From positions 1-32,156 of the forward strand of contig CAXTKV010000036.1 of NCBI GenBank assembly GCA_964244895.1: DNA of 32,156 nt. The letters run 5' to 3'. Position 1 is the stretch's first letter. Each line of letters opens with the position of its first letter. Under the pieces are notes generated by a model that ran no database searches, had not been told where the DNA came from, and worked only from the letters and a program-made list of their open reading frames with translations. The DNA comes from an uncultured Deinococcales bacterium (GTDB taxonomy: Bacteria; Deinococcota; Deinococci; Deinococcales; JAAFIG01). The position numbers were made by a program, and so were the translations under genes. Positions 1 through 32,156 of the stretch are shown in pieces.

Positions 1-79
1 TATGGGCATGTCAGAGACGCTCCAACATGCAGACGGGGAGCAAACATATCGTAGGAATCCAAAAACTACGAACCAGAAA

Positions 80-2425
80 TCAGCCACCTGGATGCTGGAG
101 GTGCGCGCCGATAGCCCCGACGGTGAACGACTCAAGGAAGTCTGTCCGGGCGCAGACCTCCATGGCCTTGTCTTCCGTCAGCGCCTCGGTGGAATCGACC
201 GTGTCCTCTCCGCCGCCCTTGATCCAGGCACTCTCCCAGAGCACCGCGAGCAGGTGCGTGCCGAGTTGCATCACCTCGATCGTCTTCGTGCCGAACTGTT
301 GCCAGAAGACCTCCGCCCGATCCTTGGGCTTGCCCGAATAATCGATGAAGGCCTGCACGATCTCCGAGGGCGGCAGCGACTTGAAGGTCGAACGCATCAG
401 TTCGATCGTGAGCTTCGCTGCGGAGAATCCGTCCCCGATAAGTTCCCCAGTCTCAACTTTGGCCGTCAGGGCCAGCGCGTCGAGGATCTGGCCTCGGTTC
501 GCGTTGATCATCTCGTCCTCGTAGGCGGCGTGGACGCCCTTGCCGAGCGGATCCTGCACGTCCTCGACCGTGCCGTTTCGGTGGTGAACCGTGCGCGTCA
601 CTGGACGCAGCGGATCCCCGTCGTGGAGGTACGAGACGTGCAGCGGCTGGCACGCGTCAGCGACGTAATGTGTCAGCACGCCCGCTGCGCACACGAACTC
701 ATCCGCCTGGCCCGCCGCCGCGAACTTGACCATCTCATCGAAGATCTGCCAGACCCGGAACGGCAGCAGGCCGCGGTGCTTGGCTTCGATCGGATCCCCC
801 GAGAGCAGGTCGCGCACGGAATCGTAGAACGCGTTCCAGGCGTCCGCGTCGATGTTCGTCGGAGCCTTGCACAGGGCGAGCAAGTCCTGACCCGCATCGT
901 TTTTCTGATCCATGTCGGCGAAGTGGTTCGGCCCCTCGAAAGGCCGGGCGTGGCCCTGACGGCCATGCTTCCAGTAAAAATCGGGAACGTCCGCCAAGTG
1001 GACGAAGGCCTGGCTGCCCATGCCCTTGAACTCGGCGTTTCGAATCGTCTCGTCGTCGGGCGCGATCAGCGCGGCGTTGTTGGTCATCAGTTCGGTCAGC
1101 TTGCGGTTGTCGCCCGAGAGAGCGCCTACGACGCGCGAAGCGATCGAGAAGTGGCCGACCGCGCCCCAGGTGTCGGGCTGGTCGAGGTTCCAGTCGCGCA
1201 CGAGATCGACGTCGAGCAGGTTGCAGACGGTGCTGAGGAAGGTCGCCAGCGCGTAGGATTGCGGCCCCTGACCGCCCCCGTGGAGCAGGTGCTCGCCCCA
1301 CTGGATCGCCAGCGGTCGGTAGGAGGGCTTAGGGGGGCTCTCGTCGTCCGTGCGCTTGCCGTTGGCCTGAGCGGGCTGAGGCTCGAGCAGGTAAAGCGTT
1401 CCCGAGTCTCCCGGATGGGTAGCAAAGGAAGGCGGGGTCTGGGCACGCGTTCTCGAGGGCTTGGCCACGTCGGTGTGGGCCACCGAGCGCGGGCCGACCA
1501 AGACATCGGCGATGTAGTCGAATCCGCCCTGGGACTTGTAGCGGTAGAAGAGCGCGTGGATCTCGCCGAGCAAGAGTCCGCTGGCGCTGCCGTGGCCGCG
1601 CACCTGGCAGCCGACCAGGGCCAGGCTGATGCTGTGAACGGAGAGGTCGAACATCGGTCCCATCGTGCCGATCCCCTCGATCTTGGCCGTCCAGTCCTCG
1701 AGCCGGTCGATGTCGATCAAGCCGACGTCGAGGTTGACGAAAACATCGTTCCCCACGAAGCCGGGGTAGAGCTCCATGAAACGCATCCGCGTGAGCTGCT
1801 TGGTTGCCGTGACCCCGATCCGCTCGGTTCGGCCCTGGAGCTTGGTATAGACGACCTCACCGGGTTCGCCCGTGACGTGTCGGTTGGTCAGGGCGTAGGT
1901 CTTGTGACCGTCGCGCACCAGGCAGGCGACGGTGGCGACGTGCTCCTGATTCTGGACGCGGGCCGTGATCGGGCGACCGCCACCGATGTTGTTCAGGGGG
2001 AACTCGATCTCGGGGGTCGGCGGGACGCTCAGCTCGCGCGGGGCGCTGATCACGCAGACCGGCACGCGCCGGCCATCCGGGAGGTAGAGGGTCTTCGGCA
2101 CGACCTCGTCCGGGTCGTAGCCGCCCCCCTCCTGGAACTTATCGAGCGGCACCCAGTGGTCGACAAAGGCCAGGATCGCCGGCCACGAGTACGGTCGAAC
2201 CTCGGAGTTCTCGAGGGTGCGCTCCCCCTTGCCGTGGATCTTGCCAGGGCCGTGCTCGTCGGGCCAGCTGTCACCGACACGGATGCGGTAGCGCCCGATG
2301 GCGGTGGCGACGACGTTCGGGTGGCGCATCAGGTGGACGTGATACAGGTCCTGAGCGTCCAGGAGATCCTTGAGCGAGAGCTGATCGTAGTTGTTGAGGG
2401 ACGACTGGTAGGCACGCAAGTCCAT
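80..2425 (-). CDS. NAL1-like trypsin-type serine protease fused to a C-terminal S1/P1 nuclease / phospholipase C-type Zn domain (781 aa)
   Basis: ATG at 2425 follows AAAGGA (track uses upstream TTG 2440). N-half: VATAIGRYRIR..PAILAFV (NAL1-type N-domain), LTNRHV (His), LDVGLI (Asp), HPGDSG (Ser). C-half: WGAVGH, ADVPD, NHFAD, HYVADACQPLH, VHAAYED, matching the S1/P1-PLC zinc ligands. No signal peptide. Confidence 0.85.
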   Translation of the reverse strand: MDLRAYQSSLNNYDQLSLKDLLDAQDLYHVHLMRHPNVVATAIGRYRIRVGDSWPDEHGPGKIHGKGERTLENSEVRPYSWPAILAFVDHWVPLDKFQEGGGYDPDEVVPKTLYLPDGRRVPVCVISAPRELSVPPTPEIEFPLNNIGGGRPITARVQNQEHVATVACLVRDGHKTYALTNRHVTGEPGEVVYTKLQGRTERIGVTATKQLTRMRFMELYPGFVGNDVFVNLDVGLIDIDRLEDWTAKIEGIGTMGPMFDLSVHSISLALVGCQVRGHGSASGLLLGEIHALFYRYKSQGGFDYIADVLVGPRSVAHTDVAKPSRTRAQTPPSFATHPGDSGTLYLLEPQPAQANGKRTDDESPPKPSYRPLAIQWGEHLLHGGGQGPQSYALATFLSTVCNLLDVDLVRDWNLDQPDTWGAVGHFSIASRVVGALSGDNRKLTELMTNNAALIAPDDETIRNAEFKGMGSQAFVHLADVPDFYWKHGRQGHARPFEGPNHFADMDQKNDAGQDLLALCKAPTNIDADAWNAFYDSVRDLLSGDPIEAKHRGLLPFRVWQIFDEMVKFAAAGQADEFVCAAGVLTHYVADACQPLHVSYLHDGDPLRPVTRTVHHRNGTVEDVQDPLGKGVHAAYEDEMINANRGQILDALALTAKVETGELIGDGFSAAKLTIELMRSTFKSLPPSEIVQAFIDYSGKPKDRAEVFWQQFGTKTIEVMQLGTHLLAVLWESAWIKGGGEDTVDSTEALTEDKAMEVCARTDFLESFTVGAIGAHLQHPGG

Positions 2426-2563
2426 GGCAATTCCTTTCAAACACTGGTCAAACAGATCCGGGCGACGTGGCGATCGCTTCAGTGACCTTTGGATGGGGCT
2501 TCATGGGTTCGCCGCGAAATAATTGGTCTTCGTCGGTCTCCACTCGAGACTGGAGAACCGCGC

Positions 2564-3652
2564 TCACGCCTCCTTTTGCCAGTCTGCGAGCTCATCGCTG
2601 ACATGCCCGACTGCGACCTGGGCAGCCCGCTCGAGCCAGCCTTTCGGTTGACGATTGATGTGCTCGGTTGCGCGCTGACACGCCTTCGCATCCCCGAGGT
2701 GGACGTTGCCCGTCTCGAAACCCATCGCACCCAGAAGCTGCAACAGGTGTGCCTCCCCCGTGACGTGTTTGAGTTCGATCCGGATCGCATCCGGCCCCAA
2801 GCGCCGACCCACCCAGCGCGCACTGAAGTGCAATTTCGGGTCTTGGTCTCGCACCGCATGCCCAATCACTTCCCGTTGCTTCGGTCGCTCGGCGATCAGC
2901 CCCGCCCACCGGCCTGCCGACGGCACGAGCCGCTTGACCTCCTGCACGACCGATTGCCCCTCAAGCGACCGCATCACCACGAAGCGTGGCCTTCCGAGGC
3001 TGCCGAGCCCGGCCCGAAACCGCTGGTGGACCTCGCCTCGCGTCAAGTCGGGAAACGGTGCGCGCAGCACCTTCAGCGCTTCGGCTGGGACGGCTTCGGA
3101 AGGTGGCCCAAGGTCTTTCTCGAGCCCCTCGAGGAACCGCTTTTCCGTGGGCATGGCGCGCTGCGCGTGCTCGCGCAGCCAGCGGTGCTTCTCGAGCCGG
3201 AACGGTCGCCCGCCGGATCGGATGGCGCTCGCGTAGCCGTCGAGGATCTCGTCGCAGGCCGCGCGAGGGGTGAGGGGCAGCACGCCCGAATCGATGGCAA
3301 TCAGCGCACTCGTCGCGAGACGCACGAGGTCGAAGGCGTAGGGGTAGCGGCCCGCCTCGTCGAAATCGTTGATGCCCCACACCAGCCCGCCCGGCGTTCG
3401 CCACGTCCCGAAGTTCTCGAGGTGTGCGTCCCCGACGGACGGCACGAGCGGAATGGCCTCGAGTTCGGGAAAGTGTTCGCGCCAGGTCTGGGCGAAGCGG
3501 AAGAAGGTCGCGCGGAAAAACCGGAACGCGTCCAGGCGCATCTGAGCGTGCTTATAGGCGAGATCCGCGGCCACGAGCGGCGTCTGCGCGCGCAGCCACG
3601 ACTCGAACTCGCGGTTGGCCTCCCGAAAGCGCATCCACACCCCCGTAAGCAT
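2564..3652 (-). CDS. DUF2252 family protein (protein-kinase-like fold)
   Basis: Motifs FRFFRATF, VGDAHLENFG, WGINDFDEA, DLVRLATS, AGLGSLGRPRF, EVK are typical of DUF2252. Start may be ATG 3634. Confidence 0.85.
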   Translation of the reverse strand: MLTGVWMRFREANREFESWLRAQTPLVAADLAYKHAQMRLDAFRFFRATFFRFAQTWREHFPELEAIPLVPSVGDAHLENFGTWRTPGGLVWGINDFDEAGRYPYAFDLVRLATSALIAIDSGVLPLTPRAACDEILDGYASAIRSGGRPFRLEKHRWLREHAQRAMPTEKRFLEGLEKDLGPPSEAVPAEALKVLRAPFPDLTRGEVHQRFRAGLGSLGRPRFVVMRSLEGQSVVQEVKRLVPSAGRWAGLIAERPKQREVIGHAVRDQDPKLHFSARWVGRRLGPDAIRIELKHVTGEAHLLQLLGAMGFETGNVHLGDAKACQRATEHINRQPKGWLERAAQVAVGHVSDELADWQKEA

Positions 3653-3700
3653 CCATACCTGCGGCCAGACCTCGAGTCCTGGCCTAATCGATCGAAGCCC

Positions 3701-4723
3701 TCAGAAGGTGATCGTCCAGCCCCGATGTCGCGCGTCCTTGCGGCTGTACGACACGCCGTGAACCTTCAAGCCGTTCGGGTCGAGCAGCGTGATCAACCCA
3801 CCCCGATCCGAGAGTTGCACCTCACCCGCGAGCGCAATGGTTTTCGTGTCCCCGGCCTTGATCGTTCCTGACAGGGCGAAGAGGTCCTTCTGCGCGTCCG
3901 CGATCGACCAGCCCTTGAGGCTCACATCCTCGCTCGAGGTGTTGAGAAGGATAACCGTCTCGCGCCCGCCGTGGGTGGGGTTGACGACCGCCGCCACGAT
4001 CCGCACCACGAAGCTGGGCTCCTTCTGCGGCCCGCCCGGCAGGGGCGGCGTGACGGGTTGCACGCCCTTGAGCTTGTGTCCGGTCTGATCGTCGGTGTGC
4101 CAGGGTTGCGACTGGAACTTGATGAACGCCCCTACCCAGGTCTGGCGGGACGGGAGCTCGAGCAGCCACGCCCCATCCTGCCAGACGCCGTCGTCCTTGA
4201 CCCAACGCCGGGAGTTGCCCTGATTCATGTGGATGTCGTGCACACCGTTGTCCGGCTCGGGGTGGAAGTACGCGTGTTGCGGAGCCTGGCCTGGAGCGTC
4301 CTGCCAGCGCTGGCCGAAGGCGTAGACGATGGCCTTCGGGTCAGCCTCGGCCAGCTTGACGTAGAACTCGAACTTCTCGTTGAGGTCGTTGTCCGGTCCG
4401 GGCACGTCGAAGGGCAACACCGTGAAGTCGCGCGGGTCGAAGAGGTTGGCGCGGATGAAGTCGAGTGCGACCCCGCCAGGTTTGGAGGCGAGTGGTGAGA
4501 AGCCCTCGCGGAGCGCGCGAAGTTTCGGGAGGATCGGATGGTCGAAGCGTTCGCGAATCAGGTATTCGACCTCGGAGGGAGCCTCGCCGGAGCGCACGTT
4601 GATCGCCACGCGCGAACGCAAGCCGGGTGACTCGACGAGCAGTTGGAAGTGGTCGGCGGCGTCGGTGGCGAGGACGTGCTCGAGGATGCGACCTTTCAGC
4701 ACGCCGTAATGCTTGAGCGGCAT
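3701..4723 (-). CDS. DUF2278/YukJ family protein with C-terminal lamin-tail domain (340 aa)
   Basis: ATG 4723 (MPLKHYGVLKG) follows GAGAGGGGA. Motifs LDFIR, YAFG, NGVHDIHMNQGN, DGVWQDG, FQSQ; C-terminal VRIVAAVVNP..ETVILLN..VSLKGWSIAD..L..GGLITLLD is LTD-like. The track's extension to 4948 looks spurious. Confidence 0.85.
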   Translation of the reverse strand: MPLKHYGVLKGRILEHVLATDAADHFQLLVESPGLRSRVAINVRSGEAPSEVEYLIRERFDHPILPKLRALREGFSPLASKPGGVALDFIRANLFDPRDFTVLPFDVPGPDNDLNEKFEFYVKLAEADPKAIVYAFGQRWQDAPGQAPQHAYFHPEPDNGVHDIHMNQGNSRRWVKDDGVWQDGAWLLELPSRQTWVGAFIKFQSQPWHTDDQTGHKLKGVQPVTPPLPGGPQKEPSFVVRIVAAVVNPTHGGRETVILLNTSSEDVSLKGWSIADAQKDLFALSGTIKAGDTKTIALAGEVQLSDRGGLITLLDPNGLKVHGVSYSRKDARHRGWTITF

Positions 4724-5071
4724 GGATTCCCCCTCTCGGTCTTTTAAGACTGCAAAAGGGAGTGTACACAGAATCGGAAGTGAGTGGGTCAAACAGCGTC
4801 TAAATGCGTGCAGGGGGCGGCTCTCAGCCCGCACAATGCCTCGCGAAATGCGGCGGAGTGAATCGCGTCGCGCTGGAGTTCGTGGCCGACGCGTCGAAAC
4901 CATCTGATTTGACTGCCGCTGCCCCTTGGTGAACAGCATCGACGGCATCGCCGTGAATGGGGCAACGCGTGGTGGGAGATCTTTCTCGTTCGGAGGACGA
5001 AAACCAAGGCACTCAAGGAACTTATCGGTACTTTCATCTGCCTCATGCCTGGGATGAGCTACCCTGAAGGC

Positions 5072-9601: not shown

Positions 9602-11509
9602 TCAGGGCAAGATCATCCGAAGATGCGGTAGCAGTCCGCCTCGCTCAGAATCTCCTGAGAGCGTGCTCAACACAAAGTATTGGTACCGTTGGCACGGCGC
9701 GTTGATCCACGCGCTCGACCCAGTGTCGTTCAACGACCGCACCCGAAGGCAGAGCGACTTGCCCGACTTCTCCGGTGCGTTCGGATTCAATACGAAGGTC
9801 GCCACCGCTCCAGATACCCCCGTCCGTCGCGCGGTCACTACGTCCGGAATTGTCAAGCCCTGCCCATCGAAAGTTCCAGTGAATTCGTAGCGTAAAGCGT
9901 TCGAGACTTCCGGCCAGGCGAGGAATACGCGTCCGGTGGAGGACATGGTCGCGTCGAGCCGATCCGGCGCACTCGGCGCCGGTGGCGGGGTCGTGATCTC
10001 GAGCGTGAAGTTTAACGCGGGCGCGAACGCCCCGTTGTCGTTGTCTCCGGGGCCGTTGAAGGCCGTCATGTTCCACCGGTACGCGCTGATATCGGCCCGT
10101 TGGAATTCACTCAGCGGAATTGTCAAAATCGAACCCGTCACCTGCTCGTTCGAGTACACGAGGTTGGCAGCACCGTAAGGAGCCTTGGAAATGTAGAGTC
10201 CGTACCGCGTCGCGCCCCGCACAGCCGTCCAGCGAAACTCGAGCGAGCCGTTCTGCGCGACGCTCGCGGTCGCTCCCGGCAGGGTGCTCGAGCCTGGGGA
10301 GACCAGCGCGGGAGCGTCGGGAAACGCGGGACCGATCGGCGGGGCGCTCGGGCCGAAATACGCCTCGAGCCCCACCCGAATACCGTCGCCAACGGCGCGT
10401 TGGAGGCCGTCTTGCCCCAGGGCGGGGCCGTCGACCGGGTTGGTGTGAAACCCGACCTCGACGATCGCGGCGGCCATCTTGGCGAAGCGCGTCTCGCCGT
10501 AGTTGCCATCCACGATGACCTGCGCGTCCGGCCATTGCAGGGCGGGTTGCGCGAGCCGGATCGCGGCGACGATTGAGGTCTGAAGGGCGGTGGCGAGCGC
10601 CTTGCTGTCCGCCTCCTGCGCGATTGGCGTGTTCGGCAGCGGGTGGTCGTTCGTGATGTAAATCCGCGTGCCGCGCGGGGCGGTATCCTGATTCGCCCCG
10701 ACAGCGTTCGTGTGCAGGCCGATCAGCGCATCGGCGCCGAGCGCGTTCGCGTACAGGGGTCTGGCGCGGATGTCCTTTTCCTCGTTGCAATCCAGACCGC
10801 CGTTGGGCCGCTCGGAATTCCAGATGCCGGAGTTCAAGCCCAGGGCCTCGAGGTGGTGCTTGGCGGCCTCTTGCCATCTCGGGTAACCGGATGCACCGTT
10901 CCCGGCGGTCTTGTCGAGGTTCCGCACGGACGAGACCAGCGCGCCCGTTGCGGCCAAGGCATCGCGCACACGGATCGCCATCTCGAGGTTGTTGAAATCC
11001 TCCTGCACGTAGATGGGCGGGTTGCCGGTGGTGTTCACCACTCCGCGCTGCAATCCCCACGCACCGGTGGTGCGCAGCGTCCAGCCGTGTCCGGGATTCA
11101 GCACGATCTTCGCTCCCGTGATGGAAGTCGGTTTCGATCCAGCCGGGAAGTCCGTCAGGATCGCCGATCCCGCGCAGATCGCGAGCGGTTCGGGCGGTTC
11201 GACGGGTTCGAGCTTCGTGTCGAACTCGAGGTACTTGACGCGATCAAAGAGCGCATCCGCGACCGCCCGGTTCACGCGAAGGCTCGCATCGCGATCCGAG
11301 GACTCGAGCCGCAACGTGACCTTCGCGGCGCGCGTGCCCAAGGTGAGTGTCCGAGATTCCAGCACCCGCCCGCGCCCCTTGAGCGCACCATTCGCGGCGC
11401 GGGCGATGATCGCTTCGAGCGAATCGGGCGGGTTGGGCGGTACGGGTTGCTGCGCGCACGAGGCGATCAGCAACAGCGTCATGGTCGCAGCGGCTGTCCT
11501 CAAATGCAT
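9602..11509 (-). CDS. N-acetylmuramoyl-L-alanine amidase (Amidase_3) lipoprotein with C-terminal FN3-like domains
   Basis: ATG 11509 after GGGAGG; lipobox LIASC; Zn-amidase motifs IVLNPGHG, QEDFNN, IGLHTNA, AAIVEVGFHTN. Confidence 0.85.
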   Translation of the reverse strand: MHLRTAAATMTLLLIASCAQQPVPPNPPDSLEAIIARAANGALKGRGRVLESRTLTLGTRAAKVTLRLESSDRDASLRVNRAVADALFDRVKYLEFDTKLEPVEPPEPLAICAGSAILTDFPAGSKPTSITGAKIVLNPGHGWTLRTTGAWGLQRGVVNTTGNPPIYVQEDFNNLEMAIRVRDALAATGALVSSVRNLDKTAGNGASGYPRWQEAAKHHLEALGLNSGIWNSERPNGGLDCNEEKDIRARPLYANALGADALIGLHTNAVGANQDTAPRGTRIYITNDHPLPNTPIAQEADSKALATALQTSIVAAIRLAQPALQWPDAQVIVDGNYGETRFAKMAAAIVEVGFHTNPVDGPALGQDGLQRAVGDGIRVGLEAYFGPSAPPIGPAFPDAPALVSPGSSTLPGATASVAQNGSLEFRWTAVRGATRYGLYISKAPYGAANLVYSNEQVTGSILTIPLSEFQRADISAYRWNMTAFNGPGDNDNGAFAPALNFTLEITTPPPAPSAPDRLDATMSSTGRVFLAWPEVSNALRYEFTGTFDGQGLTIPDVVTARRTGVSGAVATFVLNPNAPEKSGKSLCLRVRSLNDTGSSAWINAPCQRYQYFVLSTLSGDSERGGLLPHLRMILP

Positions 11510-11621
11510 CAGTGTGCCTCCCGCCGCACGAACCGCCACGGCACGTGCCGAACCCTCTGGAACCCTACCCCGAAACGCCCCATTGCCGGTGCTTCACGCG
11601 GCTCAGGATGCCATCCTCGCC

Positions 11622-12140
11622 TCAGAATTTGAACGCCACGCCGATCCCGGCCTTCAGGATCGTGCCGAACAGCGGCAGGACGACGCTCGTGTTTCCACTC
11701 CGCCCGACGGCGACCAGGATCGCGTAACCGCCGCTCAACTCGACGAAGGCCTGGATCGAAGGCGCGATCAGGTACGACAATCCCAGCGTCGCCTGTCCCC
11801 CGACGACGATCACGGTCGCGCTCGAGCCGCCCGAGGAAGCACCCGCGTAGCCGAGCGTCAACCCGCCCCCGTAGTACGCACCGAACAGTCCCTCTTGATC
11901 GATCATCGTGTTCCACAGCGAGTCGACCTGCAAGTTCACGCCGAACGTACCGGAGAGGGCGTTGAGGTTCACCCGGAATCGGAGGTCGTTGCTCGCCCCG
12001 AAGACGTTGCCGAAGGCGTACTGGAGTCCGATCGATCCGAGCGAGATCTGCGTGAAGTTGAAGTGCACCCCGAACGAATCCGCGAACGCCGACGACTGAA
12101 TCCCGAGCATGGCCACCATCGAGAGTAAGAGTTTTTTCAC
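11622..12140 (-). CDS. Small outer-membrane beta-barrel protein
   Basis: GTG after AGAGGGG; Sec signal MKKLLLSMVAMLGIQSSAFA; alternating amphipathic strands; C-terminal AGIGVAFKF (beta-signal-like terminal Phe). Confidence 0.75.
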   Translation of the reverse strand: MKKLLLSMVAMLGIQSSAFADSFGVHFNFTQISLGSIGLQYAFGNVFGASNDLRFRVNLNALSGTFGVNLQVDSLWNTMIDQEGLFGAYYGGGLTLGYAGASSGGSSATVIVVGGQATLGLSYLIAPSIQAFVELSGGYAILVAVGRSGNTSVVLPLFGTILKAGIGVAFKF

Positions 12141-12200
12141 ACGACACCCCTCTGGCGCGCCGCCACGAGAAACGGTTGATGGTGGAAACGGAGCGAGCCC

Positions 12201-12833
12201 TCACTGCACCCGCGCCTTCAAGGCGTTCAAACCGTTGTCGAGGCTCTGATCCAGGGCAGCGTCGAGCAAGCCGCCGCCGAACAGCCCGCGGCTCGCGTAG
12301 CCGTTGGTGATGATGTCCGCGACGACGCGCCGGTTGACGCGGTCGTAGACGATCAGGTTGACGGTCGCGCTCGAGTCGATGGTGGTGAAGATGAACCAAC
12401 CACCGATGCTGGTGCCCGCGTACTGCATTCGGGGCAAGACCATGTATCTCGCACCGACCGCGTCCAGCACGGCATCCAACGTCTCCTGGCGGAGCGTTCC
12501 CTGAAGGTCGTACTGGTTCATGGCCGCCAGCAGATCCCCATCCATGTTCTTCGCTTTCGCCGCCTCGAGCGTCTCGTCCCTGCCTCGAGCGCCCGCGCCG
12601 AAGAGGGTCTGGAGGGCGGCCTCGGTGCGCGCATCCATGCGATCGCGCTGGTCGGGCTTGATGATGCTCAAGAAATTCCGAACCTGCATCGGTGCGGCCA
12701 CGATCCCGAACTTGGTGACGCCCGCCCGCGTGAAATCCGCCTCGATGTTCGCTCGGATGAGCGTGACCGGGGCGCACGAGACGAAGGTCAGGGCGAGCAT
12801 CGAAAGGATGACTGCTGGACGTTTGGTGGTCAT
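12201..12833 (-). CDS. Hypothetical lipoprotein (alpha/beta; CsgG/LpoB/TolB-N-like appearance)
   Basis: ATG after AGGGGAG; lipobox FVSC; pattern LDAVGARYMV..ATVNLIVYDRVNRRVV..terminal helix. Confidence 0.7.
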   Translation of the reverse strand: MTTKRPAVILSMLALTFVSCAPVTLIRANIEADFTRAGVTKFGIVAAPMQVRNFLSIIKPDQRDRMDARTEAALQTLFGAGARGRDETLEAAKAKNMDGDLLAAMNQYDLQGTLRQETLDAVLDAVGARYMVLPRMQYAGTSIGGWFIFTTIDSSATVNLIVYDRVNRRVVADIITNGYASRGLFGGGLLDAALDQSLDNGLNALKARVQ

Positions 12834-12971
12834 GGTTTCTCCCTGGTGCGACTGAGATCAGAAGTGGGTCAACGAAAGTGAGATCCGAGTGCAGGCGTGG
12901 GCCAGCATGCGACAACGAAATCCTTTCCGAGCCGCTGGCGCGGCTCGAGCGGACGAACTGTCCAGCGCGGG

Positions 12972-15458
12972 TCAGGGTTGCGAGATCGTGATTGTCGGCT
13001 GGTCTCCTCCCGAGAGCGTCGAGAGTCCCGTCATCGCGTAATACCTGTAGGTCGCGCATACCTGCGTCGAGAGCGGACTGTCGCCGCCCGAGTTCCTGGC
13101 CAGGATCTGAACGCACAAGGCTTTGCCCTGCTTGGCCGGATCGCTCGGGTTGGCGTCCCAGACGAGTACCGCGCCGCTCGTCCCGCCGCTGCGGGCGTTG
13201 ACCGTACCGCTGAAGGTCAACGGCGCGCCGTTGAAGGTTCCCGCGAATTGGTAGACCACGGCGCTACTCACTTCGGGCCACGAGACGAACAGCCGCCCGT
13301 TCGAGGACATGGTCAGGTTCAAGCCCGTCGGCATTCCCGGTTTGGGCACCGCGGCGACCTGACAGCTTCGAACCAGATTGATGGTGGTCGTCGCACCGTT
13401 GCCCGCGATGGTCAGTGTGCCTTGTTGCTGGTTTGCGTCGGCGCAGGCTTGCGCCCGGACGGTGTATTCGAGCGAGGTCTGTCCAGCGCCGAGGTTCTGT
13501 GGCCCCGCGAAATTGACGGAGAACGGGCCGGGCGCGACCGCCAGCGTGAAGCTGCCCGGCCCGGTGCCCGCATTCTTGACGTTGAACAGCACCGCAGCGT
13601 CCGAACCGCCGACCATCCCGGTGGCGAATTGAATCGACCCGCTGACCGGCAGGTTTCCCACCAGCATTTGCCAGGCGGGATCCCCCGAGCAGGTTCGCGA
13701 GAGTGGAATGTCCGCCGCGACCCCATTCCCGGAGATCCGCAAGACGCCCTGCTCAGCGTTCGCGTTGGCGCACGGCTGCGCGCTGAGGGTGTACTCGAGG
13801 GATGTCTGACCCGCGCCCAGCCCCTGGGGGCCAGCGAAGTTGACGGCGAAAGGCCCCGAGGTCACGGCCAGGGTGAAGCTGCCCGCAGCCATGCCGCCGT
13901 TTCTCACGTTGAAGAATGCGTCCGCGCCGGATCCTCCGACCGTACCCGGTGCGAAGTCGAAACGGCTGACGGGTGACGCGCCACCCCGCGAGATCGCCTG
14001 CCAGACGGGCGTCCCTTGCGCGTACGTCACGGAAACACTCGCCGTCGTCGCCGAGCCCGCCGCATCGCGGGCGATCACGGCGATCGTGTTCGGACCGGGT
14101 ACGAGCGTCACGTTGAAGCTGAAGTTGATGCCGGAGAGGGGCGGCATGGGTTGTTCCGCCCCGCCGTTCAGTTTAAATTGAACGCTCGCGATGCCGCTGC
14201 CACCGGCGTTGTCCTGAGCCGTACCCGAGACCGTCAGGGCGCTCGAGGTCACGGTCGAGTTTGCCGCGGGGCTCGAAATGCTGACGGAGGGCGGCGTCGT
14301 GTCCGGTGGTGTCGCGCTCGGAACCCATTGCTGATCGCCATCTTGATCGTTGCAGGCGTACATCGTCACGCGGCTGTTCGCGGCTGGTTGGTACGCGTTC
14401 AAGCAGAATCCGCGCCCTTTACTCTCGAGCAGGAAAAACGGGGTGTTCGTGAAATAACGATAGTCCCACTGCTGATCCGGGTCGCTCGGGTCGCAGGCGA
14501 ACGCGATCACATCCGAACTGTTCTTGGGCTGGTAGGCGTTGAGGCACGCATTTGTTCCCCGCCGCCTGAACATGAACCCGGCGTTGCCGCCCCACATGCC
14601 CGGTTTGAAGACCTGCCAGACCTGCTCGTCGTCGCTCGTATTCGATGGGTACAGCCACGAGTAGGTCGCGGTCGGATAGGGTCTCGAGTTGAGGGCGAGG
14701 CCCGTCCCGTATCGGATGAACTGAATCTCGGAATCCGGAGCTGGAACCGAGCCCGATGCGCCGTTCTGGGAGGTGTAGCTTTCTCCCTGCACCGCGTAGC
14801 CATCGGTGCGTCCCGCGTCAATGACTTCCTTGAACTTGGTCTTCGAGGTTGCCGTCCCGGAGGTGTCGGTGTAGACCTGGAGGTGCAGGTGCGGTCCTGG
14901 GACACTACACGCAGCGTCGCCGCACGTATTTCCCGTCGATCCGGATAATCCCAGGCGCTGACCGCGCACCACCTGTCCGCTGGAAACGGCGACGCTCCCC
15001 TTTTGCATGTGCAGGTAGTAGGCCCTCGAACCATCCGCGTGGCCGATCACCACGAAGTTGCCGTTTGCCAGGCCGCAGACATTGCTCCGATAGCACGACG
15101 GATCCCAGTCGCGCCCATCGACGGCGTTGAGTACGGTTCCATCCCGGATGGCGCGAATTTCCGTCCCTTCCGGCATCCCGAAATCGAGCGCGGCCACATT
15201 TTGGTGGGAAAACGTACCGTAATAGCCCTGAATCACGCTGAACCTCGAGCCGTTGGGGAACGGCAGGAAGTAGATGAAGTTGTCGTCGTGGGCCTGCGTC
15301 TTGACGCTCGAAGAGGGGTAATTCTTGGCCGCAGGATCGTAGGTGGCCGGGTCGAAGGCCGAATGCGGGGTCGGTGCGGGCTGCCCAGGAACGACGTTGT
15401 TCTGGCATCCGATCAACCCGACGAAGGCCATGGCAGAGAGAACAAGCCATTTTTTCAT
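12972..15458 (-). CDS. M23 metallopeptidase lipoprotein with ricin-B lectin, Ig-like, two ASH-like repeats and FN3-like C-terminal domain
   Basis: ATG 15458 after GAGGA; lipobox LIGC; M23 motifs HQNVAALDF, YLHM, SGSTG, PHLHL; QxW lectin repeats (EQVW, DQQW twice, CLNAY twice); DTTPPSVSISSP Ig domain. Confidence 0.88.
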   Translation of the reverse strand: MKKWLVLSAMAFVGLIGCQNNVVPGQPAPTPHSAFDPATYDPAAKNYPSSSVKTQAHDDNFIYFLPFPNGSRFSVIQGYYGTFSHQNVAALDFGMPEGTEIRAIRDGTVLNAVDGRDWDPSCYRSNVCGLANGNFVVIGHADGSRAYYLHMQKGSVAVSSGQVVRGQRLGLSGSTGNTCGDAACSVPGPHLHLQVYTDTSGTATSKTKFKEVIDAGRTDGYAVQGESYTSQNGASGSVPAPDSEIQFIRYGTGLALNSRPYPTATYSWLYPSNTSDDEQVWQVFKPGMWGGNAGFMFRRRGTNACLNAYQPKNSSDVIAFACDPSDPDQQWDYRYFTNTPFFLLESKGRGFCLNAYQPAANSRVTMYACNDQDGDQQWVPSATPPDTTPPSVSISSPAANSTVTSSALTVSGTAQDNAGGSGIASVQFKLNGGAEQPMPPLSGINFSFNVTLVPGPNTIAVIARDAAGSATTASVSVTYAQGTPVWQAISRGGASPVSRFDFAPGTVGGSGADAFFNVRNGGMAAGSFTLAVTSGPFAVNFAGPQGLGAGQTSLEYTLSAQPCANANAEQGVLRISGNGVAADIPLSRTCSGDPAWQMLVGNLPVSGSIQFATGMVGGSDAAVLFNVKNAGTGPGSFTLAVAPGPFSVNFAGPQNLGAGQTSLEYTVRAQACADANQQQGTLTIAGNGATTTINLVRSCQVAAVPKPGMPTGLNLTMSSNGRLFVSWPEVSSAVVYQFAGTFNGAPLTFSGTVNARSGGTSGAVLVWDANPSDPAKQGKALCVQILARNSGGDSPLSTQVCATYRYYAMTGLSTLSGGDQPTITISQP
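13362..14012 (-). repeat. Tandem intragenic duplication of an approximately 107-aa Ig/ASH-like domain
   Basis: PVWQ..GSFTLAVTSGPFAVNFAGPQGLGAGQTSLEYT..C..C versus PAWQ..GSFTLAVAPGPFSVNFAGPQNLGAGQTSLEYT..C..C; boundaries approximate. Confidence 0.85.
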
Positions 15459-15472
15459 GCACGTTCCTCGAA

Positions 15473-17296
15473 TCACGAGCAGCCACCGGAGCACGGAACG
15501 ACCTTGAGGTTGACGACCGCCGGATTCCCATCCACGCCGCCGCCCCTCGAGCTCAGCGTCACCTGGTAATCACCCACGGCTGCGCTCGCGCCAGCCCTGA
15601 TGACGATCGCGGCGCGCGCGCTGCTCGAGAGGTCCGTGCGGTAGGTGAAACTCACCTGGTTCGCGCCCGTTCCGACGATGCCACCGGATGGCGTGATGAA
15701 TTGCAGCCCGTTGGCGGGCGTGTTGAACGGGCTGATCGGGTTCAGGTTCAGCTCGTAGAGCGCGTCCGCACCCTGCGCGATGATGTACGCGTTGCCGCCG
15801 GGGGCGTACACGGGCGAGAGCGTGAAGCCGCCGCCATTGCGCGTGACGTTGAGCTGGGCCTGACCCTCGTTGCCCGCGGCATCGCGAGCGAAGACCTCGA
15901 TCAGGGTGCTGCCGACGCTTAACGCGCTCGAGAAGCTGAAACTGCCCGTTCCGGGCAACGACTGTCGCGGGCCGCCGTTGACGCGGTACTCGAGCTGCGC
16001 GACACCGACATTGTCGTCGGCTGACCCGGTGACGGTGATGCTCGAGGCGTCGGTCGAGGCGTTGTTGGCCGGGCTGGTGATCGTCACGGTCGGTGGAGCG
16101 CTGTCCTGACTTCCGGTGGTGGCGGTGAATGCGCCGGACACCCCGCCGACGGTCAGCGTGGCGGTCGTGGCGCTCGAGTAATTCGCGCTGGTCTGCACGC
16201 GCAACTTGATGTAGGTGCCGTTGGCGACGCTGCCGCTCGCGCCCGTCCAAGCGCTGTACGTCACATCGTCGCTCGAGGTGGCGTACTCGCCTCCGCCGAT
16301 GCTGGTCGGGCTGGGCGCACTGATGCCTGTGATGCGAATGGGGTTGCTCTCGATCAGGATGCTGCGCGGTCGGTTTGTCTGGCTGGCGAAGCTGAACGGG
16401 TCGGGCGTGGTGTCGAGCGTCGACGTGGGCGTGTACGTCAGGTTGAGGCTCGCGGGTGTCTCCTGGGTCTTGGTGTCGGTGGCGAAGACCTCGACGGTGT
16501 TCGCACCCTCGATGAGCGTGACGCTGAAATTGAAGCTTGCGCTCGTCGGCAGGTTCTGGCGCGCCCCGCCGTTCAAGCGGTACTGGAGCGACCGGATGCC
16601 CTTGTCGTCGCTGACCGTGCCATTCACGTTGACCACGCTCGAGTTGGTCGTTCCACTGCTCGGGCTCGTGATCGTCACGACGGGCGGGTTGTCGATCTGA
16701 GGCGACCCCGGCGTGTACGAGAAGCTCACCAAGGCGCTGTCCTTGAGCCCCGATGCGTTCTCGGCGAAGACCTGGACGTTGTTGTTGCCGACCGCGCTGG
16801 CCACCGTGAAGTTGAAGGCGCTCGAGGCCGTGAGGGTCTGCCTCGAGCCGCCGTTCAGGCTGTACTCGAGCTTCGTGACCCCGACGCGGTCGGCGACCGT
16901 GCCGATGATGCTGAGGCTGGCGTCCGAGAAGCTCGCGCCGTTCGTGGGGCTGGCGATCAGCACGACAGGAGGGGTCGGAGAGGCGCTGCTCGAGAAGCTC
17001 GCCGTCACGCTCTGATTCTGGTTGACCGTCAGCGCGCAGCTTCCCGCACCGCTGCAGGCGCCACCCCAGCCCGCGAAGCTCGAGCCAGTGGCAGGTGTGG
17101 CGGTGAGGACAACCGCCGTGCCCGCCGCGTAGCTCGTTGAGCACGTGCTCCCGCAGTCGATCCCGGCAGGATTCGAGCCGATCGTACCGCTGCCCGTTTT
17201 CGAGACGGTGAGCGTCACTGCGGATGGCGGACTCGATGTGGGACAGGCCGTGAGGATACAGACCAGTACCCCGAGCGCGAGGTGTCGGATTCGCAT
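15473..17296 (-). CDS. Ig-repeat surface lipoprotein (divergent InlB B-repeat plus several bacterial Ig-like domains)
   Basis: ATG after AGGAGG; lipobox LTAC; LTVSKTGSG..GIDCGSTC..LTATPATGSSFAGWGGAC repeat; three PPxVxIxSP..YxxNGGxRQ..IEVFA domains; Ser/Thr rich. Confidence 0.88.
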   Translation of the reverse strand: MRIRHLALGVLVCILTACPTSSPPSAVTLTVSKTGSGTIGSNPAGIDCGSTCSTSYAAGTAVVLTATPATGSSFAGWGGACSGAGSCALTVNQNQSVTASFSSSASPTPPVVLIASPTNGASFSDASLSIIGTVADRVGVTKLEYSLNGGSRQTLTASSAFNFTVASAVGNNNVQVFAENASGLKDSALVSFSYTPGSPQIDNPPVVTITSPSSGTTNSSVVNVNGTVSDDKGIRSLQYRLNGGARQNLPTSASFNFSVTLIEGANTVEVFATDTKTQETPASLNLTYTPTSTLDTTPDPFSFASQTNRPRSILIESNPIRITGISAPSPTSIGGGEYATSSDDVTYSAWTGASGSVANGTYIKLRVQTSANYSSATTATLTVGGVSGAFTATTGSQDSAPPTVTITSPANNASTDASSITVTGSADDNVGVAQLEYRVNGGPRQSLPGTGSFSFSSALSVGSTLIEVFARDAAGNEGQAQLNVTRNGGGFTLSPVYAPGGNAYIIAQGADALYELNLNPISPFNTPANGLQFITPSGGIVGTGANQVSFTYRTDLSSSARAAIVIRAGASAAVGDYQVTLSSRGGGVDGNPAVVNLKVVPCSGGCS

Positions 17297-19994: not shown

Positions 19995-21701
19995 ATGGAG
20001 AAGCACAACACCAGCTCGCCAGCATCGCGCGTTTCCGTCTCGGAAGCGCGCGATGCTGTGCGGGGGCTGGTGGCTTTGAACCAGTTCGTTGCAGCTTTGC
20101 GGACGCTCCAGCTGGCACTCGCCTCTGCTCGGAACGTGCTCGAGTGCCAGGCGGTGGCCGAGCTCTTCGAGCTGGTTCCGGAGCGAGTGCGCTCGAGCGA
20201 CCCGAGCTGGGCGGTAGTGCAGGTCAAGGCGTTGTGTTTCGCGCGGCGACCCGAGACGCTCGAGCGGGTGGCCGGGGCGGCCCTCGAGCGTTGGGGTGAG
20301 TCGGCGGGTTCGGTGCGTCCCTACCAGGCCTGGGCGCTCGCGCGGCAGCGAGCGAGCGCCCAGGAGGCGCTCGAGGTGGCGGACGCTGTGATCGCGGCGC
20401 GCGCGGGGTTTCCGTCGTCTGAGATCGGGCTGGCCTGGCGCGCGCGGGCCGAGGCTTTGGCGTGGCTCGATATCCACGGCTGGCGCGAGGCGTTCGCGCG
20501 GGCGCGGGGCCTGCTGACGGGTCGCTCGTTAGGCACGTGCCTGATCGCGGAGGGGTTCCACCTGGATCGGCGAAACGAGTCGGTGGCGGCGCGGCGGGTT
20601 TGGTTGCAGGCGGCGGCCATCCTGCGCGACCCCTACTACGAAGCCTGGGTGCAGTACAACCTCGGCATCTCGTTCCTGAAAGAGGCTGCTCCAGAGGCCG
20701 AGGCGCACTTCTTGCGCCTGGAAGGTCTGACCCGGCGCGGCGTCGGAGCAGGATTCGCGGCGCGAGCTTGGTGCGGTCTCGGGGCGAGCCGCCGCGCGCT
20801 CGGCGAGTGGGATCGGGCGCAGGGTGCTTATGCGACGGCCATCCGCTTGGCTCACGAGGATGACGATGCGCTCGAGGCCTGGCGTGGGCTGGGGCACACC
20901 CTGCGTCTTGCTGGCGATTGGGCCAGGGCACTGGAAGCCCTGCACAAGGCCGTGGAAATGGATCGGAATTGGGTGACCGAAGGGCGTTCTTGGGTGATGG
21001 TCGATTTGGCCGCCGCTCGGCTCTCGATGGGCGATGAGCAGGGTGCACGCGAAGCGCTCGATCACGCCCGCGCCGAGGACCAGGATGACCGCGACCGCGA
21101 GCGCATCGTCCGGGCCGAGTTGCACCGCCGGGCGGGCGAAGCCGACGCCGCCCTGGAGACCATGGCCGGGGTCGAGCTCGGGACGCTCTGCGCCCGAGAA
21201 GAGCAGGCGTGCTTTCCAGCGGTCTTCGCGCTCCTTGAGGCACTGACGGGCCGGGCTCCAGCAGCGCTGAAGCGCACTTCGGGCACGGTGGTCGAGGTGC
21301 GAGCGATGGGTGTGTTGGAGGTTCGCGTCAACGCTCGACGCGTGCCGATCTCTCCGACGTCGATCGTCGGGGAATTGCTCGTGTTGCTGGTACACAACGG
21401 TGGCGCGCTCAGCACCGAGGTGCTGCTCGATGCCCTCTACGCCCACCAGGGTGTCGAGCGTCGCGCCAGACAGGCGCTCTCGAAGCAGGTACGCGCGTTG
21501 CGCGAGGCGCTCGGTTGGGTGGGCAGCGTGGTCGAGGTCGGCGGCGCGTACCGCCTGGACGCGGGCGCCACTTGGCGCTACGACGTGATCCAGGCGCGCG
21601 AGGCGGGCAGACCGGTGGCGCGCTTCCTCGACGGCGTGTACCGGGAGTGGGCGCTCGAAACGGCCCGGCAGCTCGAAACCAACCCGCGCGACCTCAACTA
21701 A
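19995..21701 (+). CDS. TPR-repeat transcriptional regulator with C-terminal SARP/OmpR-like winged helix
   Basis: TPR helices (AWVQYNLG, AWCGLGASRRALGEWDRAQGAY, AWRGLGHTLRLAGDWARALEAL); C-terminal VEVRAMGVLEVRVN..ELLVLL..EVLLDALY..LSKQVRALREALG..GAYRL..FLDGVYREW. Confidence 0.82.
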   Translation: MEKHNTSSPASRVSVSEARDAVRGLVALNQFVAALRTLQLALASARNVLECQAVAELFELVPERVRSSDPSWAVVQVKALCFARRPETLERVAGAALERWGESAGSVRPYQAWALARQRASAQEALEVADAVIAARAGFPSSEIGLAWRARAEALAWLDIHGWREAFARARGLLTGRSLGTCLIAEGFHLDRRNESVAARRVWLQAAAILRDPYYEAWVQYNLGISFLKEAAPEAEAHFLRLEGLTRRGVGAGFAARAWCGLGASRRALGEWDRAQGAYATAIRLAHEDDDALEAWRGLGHTLRLAGDWARALEALHKAVEMDRNWVTEGRSWVMVDLAAARLSMGDEQGAREALDHARAEDQDDRDRERIVRAELHRRAGEADAALETMAGVELGTLCAREEQACFPAVFALLEALTGRAPAALKRTSGTVVEVRAMGVLEVRVNARRVPISPTSIVGELLVLLVHNGGALSTEVLLDALYAHQGVERRARQALSKQVRALREALGWVGSVVEVGGAYRLDAGATWRYDVIQAREAGRPVARFLDGVYREWALETARQLETNPRDLN

Positions 21702-21810: not shown

Positions 21811-22797
21811 GTGAGCGACGAGAATTTGGTGTGGAACAAAGCCAATCGGCTGAACGAACTCGAACGCCTGCTGCGGCTGAAACCCCACACGGCGACCGAG
21901 CTGGCGAACCGCTTCGGCGTCGAGTCTCGCACCATCCAGCGCTACCTCAAAGAATACGAGGTGAACAGGGGCGCCCTCGAGCGTCAAGGGCGCAAGTACG
22001 CTATCTCATCGCATCGCCCCGAGTTCCACCCCGTCCAAGCTCTGGCGGCGCACGCGGCGGTGCGGTTGCTCTACCACCACGCTCCCGGCTTCGACGCTGA
22101 TTACCTCGGTGCGCTGCACCACTTGGCCCAGCGCTTGCCGGAACCGGCGCGCGGCCTCGCCGAGCGCAGCACCGCCGTGCTCGAGACCCGCAAGGGTCAG
22201 CCGCGCCCGGACGTGCGCGAGGCCGCGAACTTGGCGCACGTCGCCCGCGCTTGGTTTGAGCGACTCGTGTTGAATTTCTATCACACCAAACCCGGCGAGG
22301 CCGAGGAGCAGCGCGCCATCGAGGTTTACGCCATTGAGATCTCGAGATCCAACCTGGCGATGTACGTGATCGGCTTCGAGCGCGTGAAAAGCAAGAGCAT
22401 CCGTACTTTCAAGCTCTCCCGAATGCGCCACCCCGCCGTCACGAGCGAAACCTACACCATCCCAGCCGAATTTGACCCGAGCGCATACCTGTCTGATGCC
22501 TGGGGCGTGATCGGCAGGAGCGACGGCGAAACCATTTCAGTCCAGTTGCGGTTCGCGCCGGAGGCCGCGTATCGGCTCGAGGAGGGCGGCTACCCGAACC
22601 TCGAAATTACAAAGCGCTACGAAGACGGGTCGCTCGCGGTCGAGGTCACAGCGGGCACGGATCACACGGGTTTACCGCGCGAATTGCTGCCGTGGATTCT
22701 CGGCTGGGGACCGCGGGTAGAAGTGGTCGGACCGCCGAGGGTGCGCGAGAAATGGCTCGACGAAGCCAAAGAGCTGCTCCGGCGATACGCGACCTGA
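21811..22797 (+). CDS. HTH-WYL-WCX transcriptional regulator
   Basis: GTG after GGAGG; HTH TATELANRFGVESRTIQRYL; WYL core MYVIG..IRTFKLSRM; WCX LLPWILGWGPRVEVVGP. Confidence 0.93.
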   Translation: MSDENLVWNKANRLNELERLLRLKPHTATELANRFGVESRTIQRYLKEYEVNRGALERQGRKYAISSHRPEFHPVQALAAHAAVRLLYHHAPGFDADYLGALHHLAQRLPEPARGLAERSTAVLETRKGQPRPDVREAANLAHVARAWFERLVLNFYHTKPGEAEEQRAIEVYAIEISRSNLAMYVIGFERVKSKSIRTFKLSRMRHPAVTSETYTIPAEFDPSAYLSDAWGVIGRSDGETISVQLRFAPEAAYRLEEGGYPNLEITKRYEDGSLAVEVTAGTDHTGLPRELLPWILGWGPRVEVVGPPRVREKWLDEAKELLRRYAT

Positions 22798-22914
22798 GCA
22801 CCTATCGGAAGACCTCAGCGGACGCGGACACACGTGTTATTTCTGGCTAGGTCGCCGAGTGGCTGTCATTAGAACGGGTCGCACGGCAATGGGCTGCCGG
22901 GGAAAGAGACTCAC

Positions 22915-25200: not shown

Positions 25201-25215
25201 AGGAGGAGGTCGCGA

Positions 25216-25926
25216 ATGAATCTGGTTGAAGTCAAAGTCTGGGGCGAGTACGCCTGTTTCACCCGCCCGGAGAACAAGGTCGAGCGCGTCAGTTACGACG
25301 TGATGACACCGAGCGCGGCGCGAGGGGTGCTCGAGGGCATACTGTGGAAACCACGAATGCGCTATCGAGTGCGTGAAATTGCGGTGCTCAAACCCATCCG
25401 ACGGGCCAGCATCCTGCGGAACGAAATCAACACCGTGCAATCCGCCGGGACGGCGCAGCGTTGGCAGAAATCTGGCGGCGGGTACGCCAGCGACGAGGAC
25501 CGCGCCCAACGTCACGCGCTGGTGCTGCGCGACGTGGCCTACGTGATCCGCGCCGAAATTCAACTCACCACCATCGCCGATGCCGACGAATCGATCCAAA
25601 AATACCTGGCGATGTTCAAGCGTCGGGTCGAGCACGGTCAGTCATTCCGGCAGCCGTACCTGGGGACTCGAGAATTCAGCGCCCACTTCGCAGCGCCAGA
25701 GGCGACCGATACACCCATCGAACACTCAGATGAACTCGGACGGATGCTGCTGGACATCGCCTTCACGCCGCGCAAAAAGGGAACGCTCAAATACCTAACG
25801 CACGATGCGGCCCAAGCGCAAGTGACGCAAGGGCAGGCCACACCTATTTTCTTTCGGGCACGGCTCGAGAACGGCGTGCTTCGCGTGCCGGAGGATGAAT
25901 ACAAACGCCTCGAAGAGGTGAAGTGA
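25216..25926 (+). CDS. cas5c: Type I-C Cas5c (Cas5d)
   Basis: VWGEYACFTRPENKVERVSYDVMTPSAARG..WKP; QPYLGTREF. Confidence 0.96.
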   Translation: MNLVEVKVWGEYACFTRPENKVERVSYDVMTPSAARGVLEGILWKPRMRYRVREIAVLKPIRRASILRNEINTVQSAGTAQRWQKSGGGYASDEDRAQRHALVLRDVAYVIRAEIQLTTIADADESIQKYLAMFKRRVEHGQSFRQPYLGTREFSAHFAAPEATDTPIEHSDELGRMLLDIAFTPRKKGTLKYLTHDAAQAQVTQGQATPIFFRARLENGVLRVPEDEYKRLEEVK

Positions 25927-28663: not shown

Positions 28664-28664
28664 C

Positions 28665-30343: not shown

Positions 30344-30345
30344 GC

Positions 30346-30636
30346 ATGGATATTCTAGTGAGCTACGATGTCAACACGGAAACCCGCGAAGGTCGCCGCC
30401 GACTGAGGCACGTAGCGAAACTCTGTCAGGCATACGGGCAACGCGTGCAATTCAGCGTCTTCGAGTGTCACGTAGACGATGTACAGTACGAAGCGCTGCG
30501 ACACAGGCTGGTGAAGGTGATCGAACCGAGCCAGGACAGCATCCGGCTTTACAAACTGCGGCAACCTCGAGATCAAAGCGTCGAAACCTACGGCATCGAC
30601 CGGTACGTGGACTTCAACGACCCGCTCGTTTTGTAA
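30346..30636 (+). CDS. cas2: Cas2
   Basis: ILVSYDV..RRLRHVAKLCQAYGQRVQFSVFEC..DSIRLY. Confidence 0.98.
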   Translation: MDILVSYDVNTETREGRRRLRHVAKLCQAYGQRVQFSVFECHVDDVQYEALRHRLVKVIEPSQDSIRLYKLRQPRDQSVETYGIDRYVDFNDPLVL

Positions 30637-32146: not shown

Positions 32147-32156
32147 AGCAAACCAC

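Follow-up and report, generated by a model that had tools for sequence, protein, structure and literature searches.

How can an enzyme whose metal site is completed by a free N-terminal tryptophan be encoded in the middle of a longer, apparently cytoplasmic protein, and what would set that tryptophan free? The question is raised by a gene at the start of contig CAXTKV010000036.1 (NCBI GenBank assembly GCA_964244895.1) of an uncultured Deinococcales bacterium, analysed here over positions 1 to 32,156, the window. The minus-strand open reading frame 80-2425 specifies a product of 781 amino acids (85.8 kDa), in which a protease related to the rice yield protease NARROW LEAF 1 (NAL1) is joined to a zinc phosphoesterase domain of the phospholipase C/P1 nuclease (PLC/P1) fold. 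The need for a free N-terminal Trp is the reason why the enzymes known with this fold are exported proteins, and the fusion shows how one could be used, possibly in gated form, inside the cell. Our best explanation, to which we give a probability of about 0.72 on the strength of sequence and structure comparison, is that the protease half likely cuts the chain of its own family immediately before Trp420. The features concerned are as follows.

80..2425, minus strand: whole gene, NAL1-type protease fused to a PLC/P1-fold zinc phosphoesterase.
2432..2436, minus strand: AAGGA resembling a ribosome-binding site, 7 bases before the ATG at 2425 (sequence).
2042..2392, minus strand: residues 12-128, counterpart of the NAL1 ATP-binding domain and carrying an additional conserved insert near residues 50-80 (fold and profile alignment, conservation).
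1196..2041, minus strand: residues 129-410, trypsin-fold serine protease domain (Pfam, Foldseek, profile).
1877..1879, minus strand: catalytic His183 in TNRHV (338/338 full-length homologues).
1727..1729, minus strand: catalytic Asp233 in LDVGLI (338/338 full-length homologues).
1403..1405, minus strand: catalytic Ser341 in GDSG (337/338 full-length homologues).
1418..1420, minus strand: Thr336, S1-pocket position 190 in chymotrypsin numbering, counted from the catalytic Ser (covariation with residue 419).
1292..1303, minus strand: Q375-W376-G377-E378, taken as S1-pocket positions 213-216 (378 covaries with 419).
1169..1195, minus strand: residues 411-419, linker of fixed length and low model confidence, with Thr419 as the predicted P1 residue (model, alignment).
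1166..1168, minus strand: Trp420, codon TGG, the predicted new N-terminus, corresponding to the first residue of the mature P1/S1 nucleases and PLC (structure alignment, conservation).
83..1168, minus strand: residues 420-781, 39.6 kDa, PLC/P1 fold, with W420, H425, D482, H501, H586, D590, H596, H632 and E636 as metal ligands by motif.

The 781-residue protein, H183, the Asp of LDVGLI (D233), S341 and the W420 codon at 1168-1166 are as given in a first-pass annotation made from the letters alone. The family alignment used below was reduced from 453 profile hits to 338 full-length sequences and, after thinning to <65% identity, to 108 rows; 2079 proteins were scored among 8000 candidates examined. 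By hydropathy only, with no dedicated predictor, an N-terminal signal or membrane stretch is evident in none of the 76 of 108 rows checked (the rows with P identifiers; maxima 1.53 for the N-terminal 11-residue and 1.66 for the 19-residue measure), in line with the earlier description of the protein as cytoplasmic.

The N-terminal half is a NAL1-type protease, as had first been proposed. It exceeds the Pfam Nal1_C cut-off (31.8 against 26.1 bits), and in an AlphaFold2 model of the protein (predicted local distance difference test score (pLDDT) 87, predicted template modelling score (pTM) 0.62) it aligns with rice NAL1 over about 420 columns (Foldseek E 2.7e-21, TMt 0.70-0.79), the next matches, alpha-lytic-type proteases at E 2e-7, lying far behind. 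The profile match to rice NAL1 reaches E 5.6e-18, with an alignment from position 79. A trypsin fold with a His-Asp-Ser triad, intact in all 108 thinned rows, is preceded by a domain with the fold of the NAL1 ATP-binding domain. According to passages of PMC12012508, this domain of NAL1 binds ATP and builds a trimer, the enzyme is active only as a hexamer, which requires the strand of residues 48-53, and other proteins (FZP) are cleaved within a cage. The bacterial protein begins after that strand and has no counterpart of it by alignment. Among the ATP-contacting residues compared (R120, R122, K123, K139 and D166), R122 corresponds to R49, kept in 102 of 108 rows, the equivalent of R120 is R or L, K139 is replaced by Trp and D166 by a Cys that is invariant in the bacterial family; the R120-K123 stretch aligns only at a non-significant score. 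The ligands are thus only partly kept, and the bacterial domain is at most a candidate ATP binder. The region spanning residues 12-128, with its conserved insert near residues 50-80 and its highly conserved H29, T41, R49, W91 and C124, is a candidate regulatory or oligomerisation domain, in which a conserved pocket or interface would be the putative seat of control.

The C-terminal half has the helical PLC/P1 fold. Modelled alone (pLDDT 97), residues 420-781 match only six chains above Z 5 among 48,161 PDB representatives, all of them PLC or S1/P1 enzymes (Z 16.2-17.9), the next match standing at Z 3.9. Residue 1 of this model, W420, aligns with residue 1 of 1ah7, residue 21 of 5fb9 and residue 27 of 8qjl, which are the first residues of the mature enzymes, and the full set of nine metal ligands can be assigned by motif. 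Across the 338 full-length homologues, H425, D482, H501, H586, H596 and H632 are invariant, and W420, D590 and E636 are kept in 337, 336 and 334, respectively, the other 4 having Asp in place of Glu. The signal peptide whose removal exposes Trp1 in S1/P1 enzymes is absent: the Trp lies at residue 420, and there is no hydrophobic leader. The part played by an N-terminal Trp is described in passages on known enzymes. The main chain of the N-terminal Trp ligates zinc in S1 nuclease (PMC5201275); the pro-form of Listeria PLC is inactive, and a single extra residue before W1 abolishes activity (PMC10576769, citing its ref. 51), maturation being carried out by a separate protease, Mpl (PMC10576769).

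What joins the two halves is constant in length. L404 and W420 are 16 residues apart in 105 of the 108 rows, compared with 17 to 84 residues for the protease-internal S341-W376 loop, and residues 413-419 form one of only two stretches of the model with pLDDT <50. Of the DxWGxxGH junction described by the first-pass annotation, the Trp is general (107 of 108 rows) and the 'Dx' clade-specific, residue 419 being Y in 56 rows, T in 37, S in 6, F in 4 and R, V or I in a few.

The identity of residue 419 varies together with the specificity pocket of the protease. In an unguided mutual-information scan of the 108 rows, the pair 378-419 ranks 1 of 201,295 (z 12.7). With the window's own 31-row clade reduced to one row as an ancestry control, the pair comes third of 186,966, and residue 419 then has 378, 375 and 336 as its three strongest partners, corresponding to chymotrypsin positions 216, 213 and 190. 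The register comes from placing QWGX, which ends at 378, on IHWGG of V8 protease, bridged by a trypsin-like protein of locus L157 in a weak profile match (probability 6.6). We take QWGX to represent chymotrypsin 213-216, which puts 378 at position 216, at the mouth of S1. Positions 190 and 216 are among those that shape S1 specificity, according to passages of PMC7914634. Tyr or Phe at 419 occurs with Gly378 in 58 of 60 rows and other residues occur without it in 45 of 48 (89 of 94 and 45 of 51 in a wider set including partial sequences), which is the expected direction because a large P1 residue needs an open pocket. A plasmid-encoded homologue of Sphingobium fuliginis, WP_025548962.1, is an example of the Tyr/Gly pairing. 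In the rows beyond the window's clade, T190, Q/E213 and G216 occur together as a full pocket signature in 55 of 60 aromatic-P1 rows, as against 1 of 17 others. Trees were built leaving out the tested columns; of the branches where the P1 class changes, 5 of 7 (FastTree) and 5 of 8 (IQ-TREE) also carry a change of Gly378. Ranked by such coincidence, 378 is first and 336 second of 614 columns on both trees, and 0 of 2,000,000 random placements (FastTree) did as well.

Several points weigh against taking this pattern as the trace of a cut. The P1 class changed no more than 7-8 times, and the result of a strict test on independent pairs is not significant, either for the thinned rows (5 starred pairs, 3.5-4.1 concordant, 0 discordant, median p 0.125) or for the wider set (7 pairs, 4.7 concordant, 0 discordant, median p 0.0625). 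The branch-coincidence test was post hoc, the pair having been chosen first, and assumes changes proportional to branch length. The rule fails in five of the 108 rows, where Gly378 accompanies a non-aromatic residue (3 rows) or Ala is found with Tyr (2 rows). A pocket with Glu, Arg or Gln at 216 beside a Thr P1 is unusual, and one homologue has Phe in place of Trp420. A complex prediction for residues 12-410 with residues 413-781 (score 0.00) speaks neither for nor against a cut.

Among the best 150 representatives found with the C-terminal half, three homologues depart from the shared architecture (P0242, which is WP_335329174.1, P0257 and P0240): two are stand-alone zinc domains with 11- and 6-residue leaders before the Trp, one of them from Mycobacterium kyogaense, and a 777-residue protein carries the zinc domain behind an unrelated N-terminal domain, its Trp/His motif degenerate through loss of the Trp and the first His.

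Such exceptions fit a reading that we consider improbable, namely that no cut is needed or another protease makes it, the internal Trp ligating zinc by its carbonyl only or giving way to a substitute ligand, and the fused protease having outside substrates. NAL1 does cleave another protein, FZP, inside its cage; the residue before the Trp is variable; the stand-alone domains carry leaders and the alternative fusion a degenerate motif; and the covariation could stem from a non-productive contact or shared ancestry. This reading nevertheless leaves unexplained why the three best partners of residue 419 are three S1-pocket positions and why the linker has a fixed length, and the inactivation of Listeria PLC by one added residue speaks against it.

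Under the self-cleavage explanation that we favour, the gene would encode a likely cytoplasmic pro-enzyme, complete in itself, whose NAL1-type half cuts between Thr419 and Trp420, either in cis or from one subunit of a NAL1-like oligomer to another. The freed amino group of Trp420 would complete the three-zinc site and thereby turn on the 39.6-kDa phosphoesterase, and gating may fall to the N-terminal domain; the equivalent domain of NAL1 binds ATP and is the one that builds its trimer. The earlier proposal of a zymogen cut at T419/W420 by the fused protease is partly borne out: the near-invariant Trp and triad, the fixed spacing, the low model confidence of the linker (pLDDT <50) and the covariation of 419 with the pocket lend it comparative support, the cut itself being predicted.

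The identical cut might serve a different end, and a close rival, which we hold as a real if lesser possibility, differs from the favoured reading in gating and role. Methionine aminopeptidase leaves Met in place before a large residue; since no signal peptidase is at hand to expose the Trp either, a cytoplasmic enzyme would rely on its built-in protease. Constitutive cleavage at Thr419/Trp420 would then supply the N-terminus of a non-toxic phosphoesterase with a narrow substrate (a nucleotide, cyclic dinucleotide or lipid head group). All the evidence for cleavage fits such a maturase equally, as do a solo, strongly conserved gene set among metabolic genes without sensor or partner, syntenic sites kept in groups of related alphaproteobacterial genomes, and a relative, SmNuc1, that acts on cyclic di-GMP (c-di-GMP) according to a PDB title (9emg). 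Conversely, it would be costly to retain for a one-off cut a NAL1 module of 410 residues whose N-terminal domain is highly conserved (H29, T41, W91, C124, R49), the distribution is patchy (2 of 18 same-family genomes; 275 matches in 185,579 genomes), and a nuclease of S1/P1 type left ungated should damage the cell.

On what the released domain acts, a nuclease or nucleotidase is more likely than a phospholipase, and we lean slightly towards nucleic acid or a nucleotide as the substrate class. Foldseek ranks 1-13 for the C-terminal half are all S1/P1 nucleases, its best profile match is AtBFN2 (E 0.001), and H501-F502-x-D504 corresponds to the S1 nucleoside site Phe81/Asp83 (F/Y in 105 and D in 103 of 108 rows). 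Most of 47 diverse homologues match Pfam S1-P1 (PF02265) weakly, often from profile position 1, and 2 of the 47 pass its gathering score of 29.5 bits, which the window protein, with no match at E 0.01, does not reach. Other traits weaken this lean: structural Z-scores do not split the two classes (clostridial alpha-toxin 17.9, S1 17.7, Bacillus cereus PLC 17.3), the Lys/Arg that S1 has at +3 from the catalytic Asp is absent (W485), with K/R at +4 in 101 of 108 rows, and Glu stands at 636, where nucleases have HxxWD. By motif, E636 and its 'PD' context look PLC-like. The alternative of a released hydrolase of membranes or lipids akin to phospholipase C, which we think unlikely, draws on the same level Z-scores and Glu636, on a PLC profile match at E 0.022 and on a weak Pfam Zn_dep_PLPC (PF00882) match (19.8 bits against a cut-off of 26.8) in a protein without an S1-P1 match; the uniform Foldseek ranking, the AtBFN2 profile and the weak S1-P1 matches of most diverse homologues count against it. 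The first-pass label of an S1/P1-type nuclease was sound for the PLC/P1 fold; between S1/P1 and PLC, the structure scores (Z 16.2-17.9) do not discriminate. Passages of PMC3482391 link the Het-C toxin domain to the same fold. In Mesorhizobium sophorae, an ordinary S1/P1 nuclease with a 20-residue leader is encoded directly downstream of the fusion (locus L030, 10386-11225).

Would the released enzyme be toxic? A latent effector freed on stress or infection is plausible, if a little short of an even chance. The more specific idea of a one-gene sensor-protease-effector, in which a NAL1-like cage would use its N-terminal domain to sense a nucleotide or infection cue, cut itself at X/Trp and so make the zinc-binding N-terminus of a cell-killing P1-type nuclease, we regard as doubtful. 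Genes were called by a simple codon-score script in 91 loci of at least 9 kb, from which 16 near-duplicates were dropped, leaving 75 loci and 144 nearest neighbours. An effector role is disfavoured by these neighbours, which are mostly metabolic, transport and regulatory genes with 4 integrases and 2 transposases, by an identity of 55-70% across several phyla, high for a defence gene, and by the absence of sensor-fused longer forms of the protease half (1368-3905 residues) among 4071 candidates, a weak test. Across 80 GTDB loci no conserved partner gene was found, the shared neighbours being housekeeping genes of related genomes. The abortive-infection or cell-death effector of the first-pass annotation finds no backing in this solo gene, with its mostly metabolic neighbours and no conserved partner or sensor.

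Some settings do resemble defence. On a conjugative Sphingobium plasmid the fusion gene adjoins an anti-phage dGTPase, a ParDE pair and a transposon, one defence-like cluster among the four plasmid loci read, the other three being unlike it; at L110 a trypsin-NucA fusion lies directly upstream of the homologue. PADLOC models match 10 of the 144 nearest neighbours at 1e-10, nearly all by generic domains, a count made without a control set. The PADLOC model PDLC03017 ('trypsin-like') matches the window protein across both halves (E 3.4e-36), and its best match in a 401-genome sample is an unrelated trypsin/ATPase locus. The models next to it bear the names TIR-TM, MTase_I, subtilase, peptidase_U41, Hydrolase, Hp2, gop and DUF4238-Pers. 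No gasdermin occurs among the 144 scanned neighbours, and a gasdermin-associated origin of PDLC03017 is an unconfirmed guess, absent from the passages of the gasdermin preprint consulted. A link to Pycsar was dropped, the two neighbours in question being generic class III cyclases. Locus L157 (G447:C8, 3522-14278) holds a trypsin-nuclease-like fusion, a subtilase-trypsin-like fusion, a trypsin-ATPase-like gene and a long ATPase-like gene, so labelled by motif, and resembles trypsin/ATPase defence operons. At L167 (G706:C17, 2000-20000) the homologue seemingly lies between replication/ParB-like genes and an error-prone polymerase cassette, labels that we assume from the first residues of the proteins, and the setting suggests a mobile or variable region.

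The fusion is widespread yet patchy. Searched alone, the C-terminal half yields 671 representatives at 50% clustering, the best 150 of which are nearly all this fusion or its fragments; the 120 among the matches listed in the range of 764-2180 residues are all 764-851 residues long, with no longer form among them. Named hosts include Alphaproteobacteria, Planctomycetota, Acidobacteriota, Gemmatimonadota, Myxococcota, Chloroflexota and Bacteroidota, mostly with soil-type genomes. The 275 matches in 185,579 genomes, counted by exact motifs, are a lower bound. Besides the 2 positive genomes of 18 in the window's family, 42 others of the order gave no strong match, several genomes being incomplete; 5 of 72,556 plasmid records are positive, the phage genomes and viral contigs searched contain no relative, and the RNA runs searched list no holder. 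Homologues at L034, L039, L040, L042, L046, L049 and L161, many in metagenome-assembled genomes, seem split or frameshifted, through assembly error or decay.

In the window, the 3' end of the gene lies 80 bases from the contig start, so that the contig holds no downstream context. Its GC content (0.653, genome 0.627) is unremarkable, a promoter and terminator scan found nothing exceeding chance, and a long opposite-strand frame (2-2485, plus strand) was taken as a GC-rich shadow. Upstream on the same strand (2564-4948) are a DUF2252 gene and a DUF2278+LTD gene; DUF2278+LTD likewise precedes the homologue in the same-family genome G706, and DUF2252 flanks that of L110. Farther on lie minus-strand cell-wall-related genes (9602-17296: amidase_3, a peptidase M23 with ricin-type lectin and Ig domains, and an Ig-repeat protein) and a tetratricopeptide repeat (TPR) protein (19995-21701) matched by two PADLOC TPR models (E 1e-140 and 3e-100). 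Next come a WYL-domain regulator and a type I-C CRISPR-Cas operon (21811-32147: cas3, cas5, cas8c/csd1, cas7, cas4, cas1), followed by a CRISPR array of at least 19 repeats that reaches the window end, about 20 kb from the fusion gene.

The joining of a NAL1-type protease to a PLC/P1 domain is a real, conserved and apparently undescribed architecture. It is not described in the open full-text literature searched; term look-up found no mention of it in the portions covered of PMC12799240, PMC12642450, bioRxiv 2025.09.03.673762, PMC7159879, PMC8195603 and PMC12366544, and it does not appear in passages of PMC10312443 or PMC3482391. NCBIfam has no family for 14 members, and the ESM Atlas returns only unnamed or Nal1_C clusters. 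The prediction is sharp, a 39.6-kDa product starting at Trp420 and dependent on Ser341. The fusion would add a one-gene candidate to the protease-activated nucleases that now draw attention in bacterial immunity, and would give the NAL1-type protease a predicted natural substrate and a pocket code, Gly216 going with Tyr/Phe and a bulky residue 216 with Thr/Ser. The family also offers a simple bacterial system for asking what the NAL1 N-terminal domain senses. Were the sensor-protease-effector idea true, the activation chemistry would be one undescribed in prokaryotic immunity, and the protein a bacterial model for the gating of plant NAL1.

Among known systems, rice NAL1 (PDB 8HAU, 8PMG, 7Y77; Pfam PF25608/PF25819) shares the ATP-binding-like domain, the trypsin-fold protease and the triad, and the bacterial protein differs in having a PLC/P1 domain where the solved region of NAL1 ends. 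S1/P1 nucleases (1AK0, 5FB9, 8QJL, 3W52; PF02265) and zinc PLCs (1AH7, 8CQM, 1OLP; PF00882) have the fold, the Trp at position 1 and the full metal-ligand set in common with it. Those enzymes are exported and owe their maturation to signal peptidase or to a protease of its own gene, whereas the fusion has an internal Trp, no signal-like stretch and a candidate maturing protease in the same chain, and falls under both Pfam cut-offs. NucA-trypsin conflict systems, as presented in passages of Kaur et al. 2020 (PMC7159879), likewise combine a trypsin-like peptidase with a nuclease, sometimes in one chain and with predicted proteolytic activation; they differ in their HNH-type NucA, multi-gene contexts, lack of an N-terminal-amine requirement and protease clade. 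The antiphage trypsin-MBL (metallo-beta-lactamase) modules of Hachiman, Avs, Lamassu and DRT, and canu, described in passages of PMC12799240, PMC12642450 and bioRxiv 2025.09.03.673762, also pair a trypsin-like protease with a latent nuclease activated by site-specific cleavage. There, the MBL-fold nuclease is encoded by a separate gene, blocking insertions are cut and the protease is fused to a sensor. The fusion does not belong to these pairs: it has neither a conserved neighbour nor, so far as found, a longer form, and it stands apart in being a single gene with a PLC/P1 fold, no known sensor and, as predicted, activation by the making of a metal-binding N-terminus.

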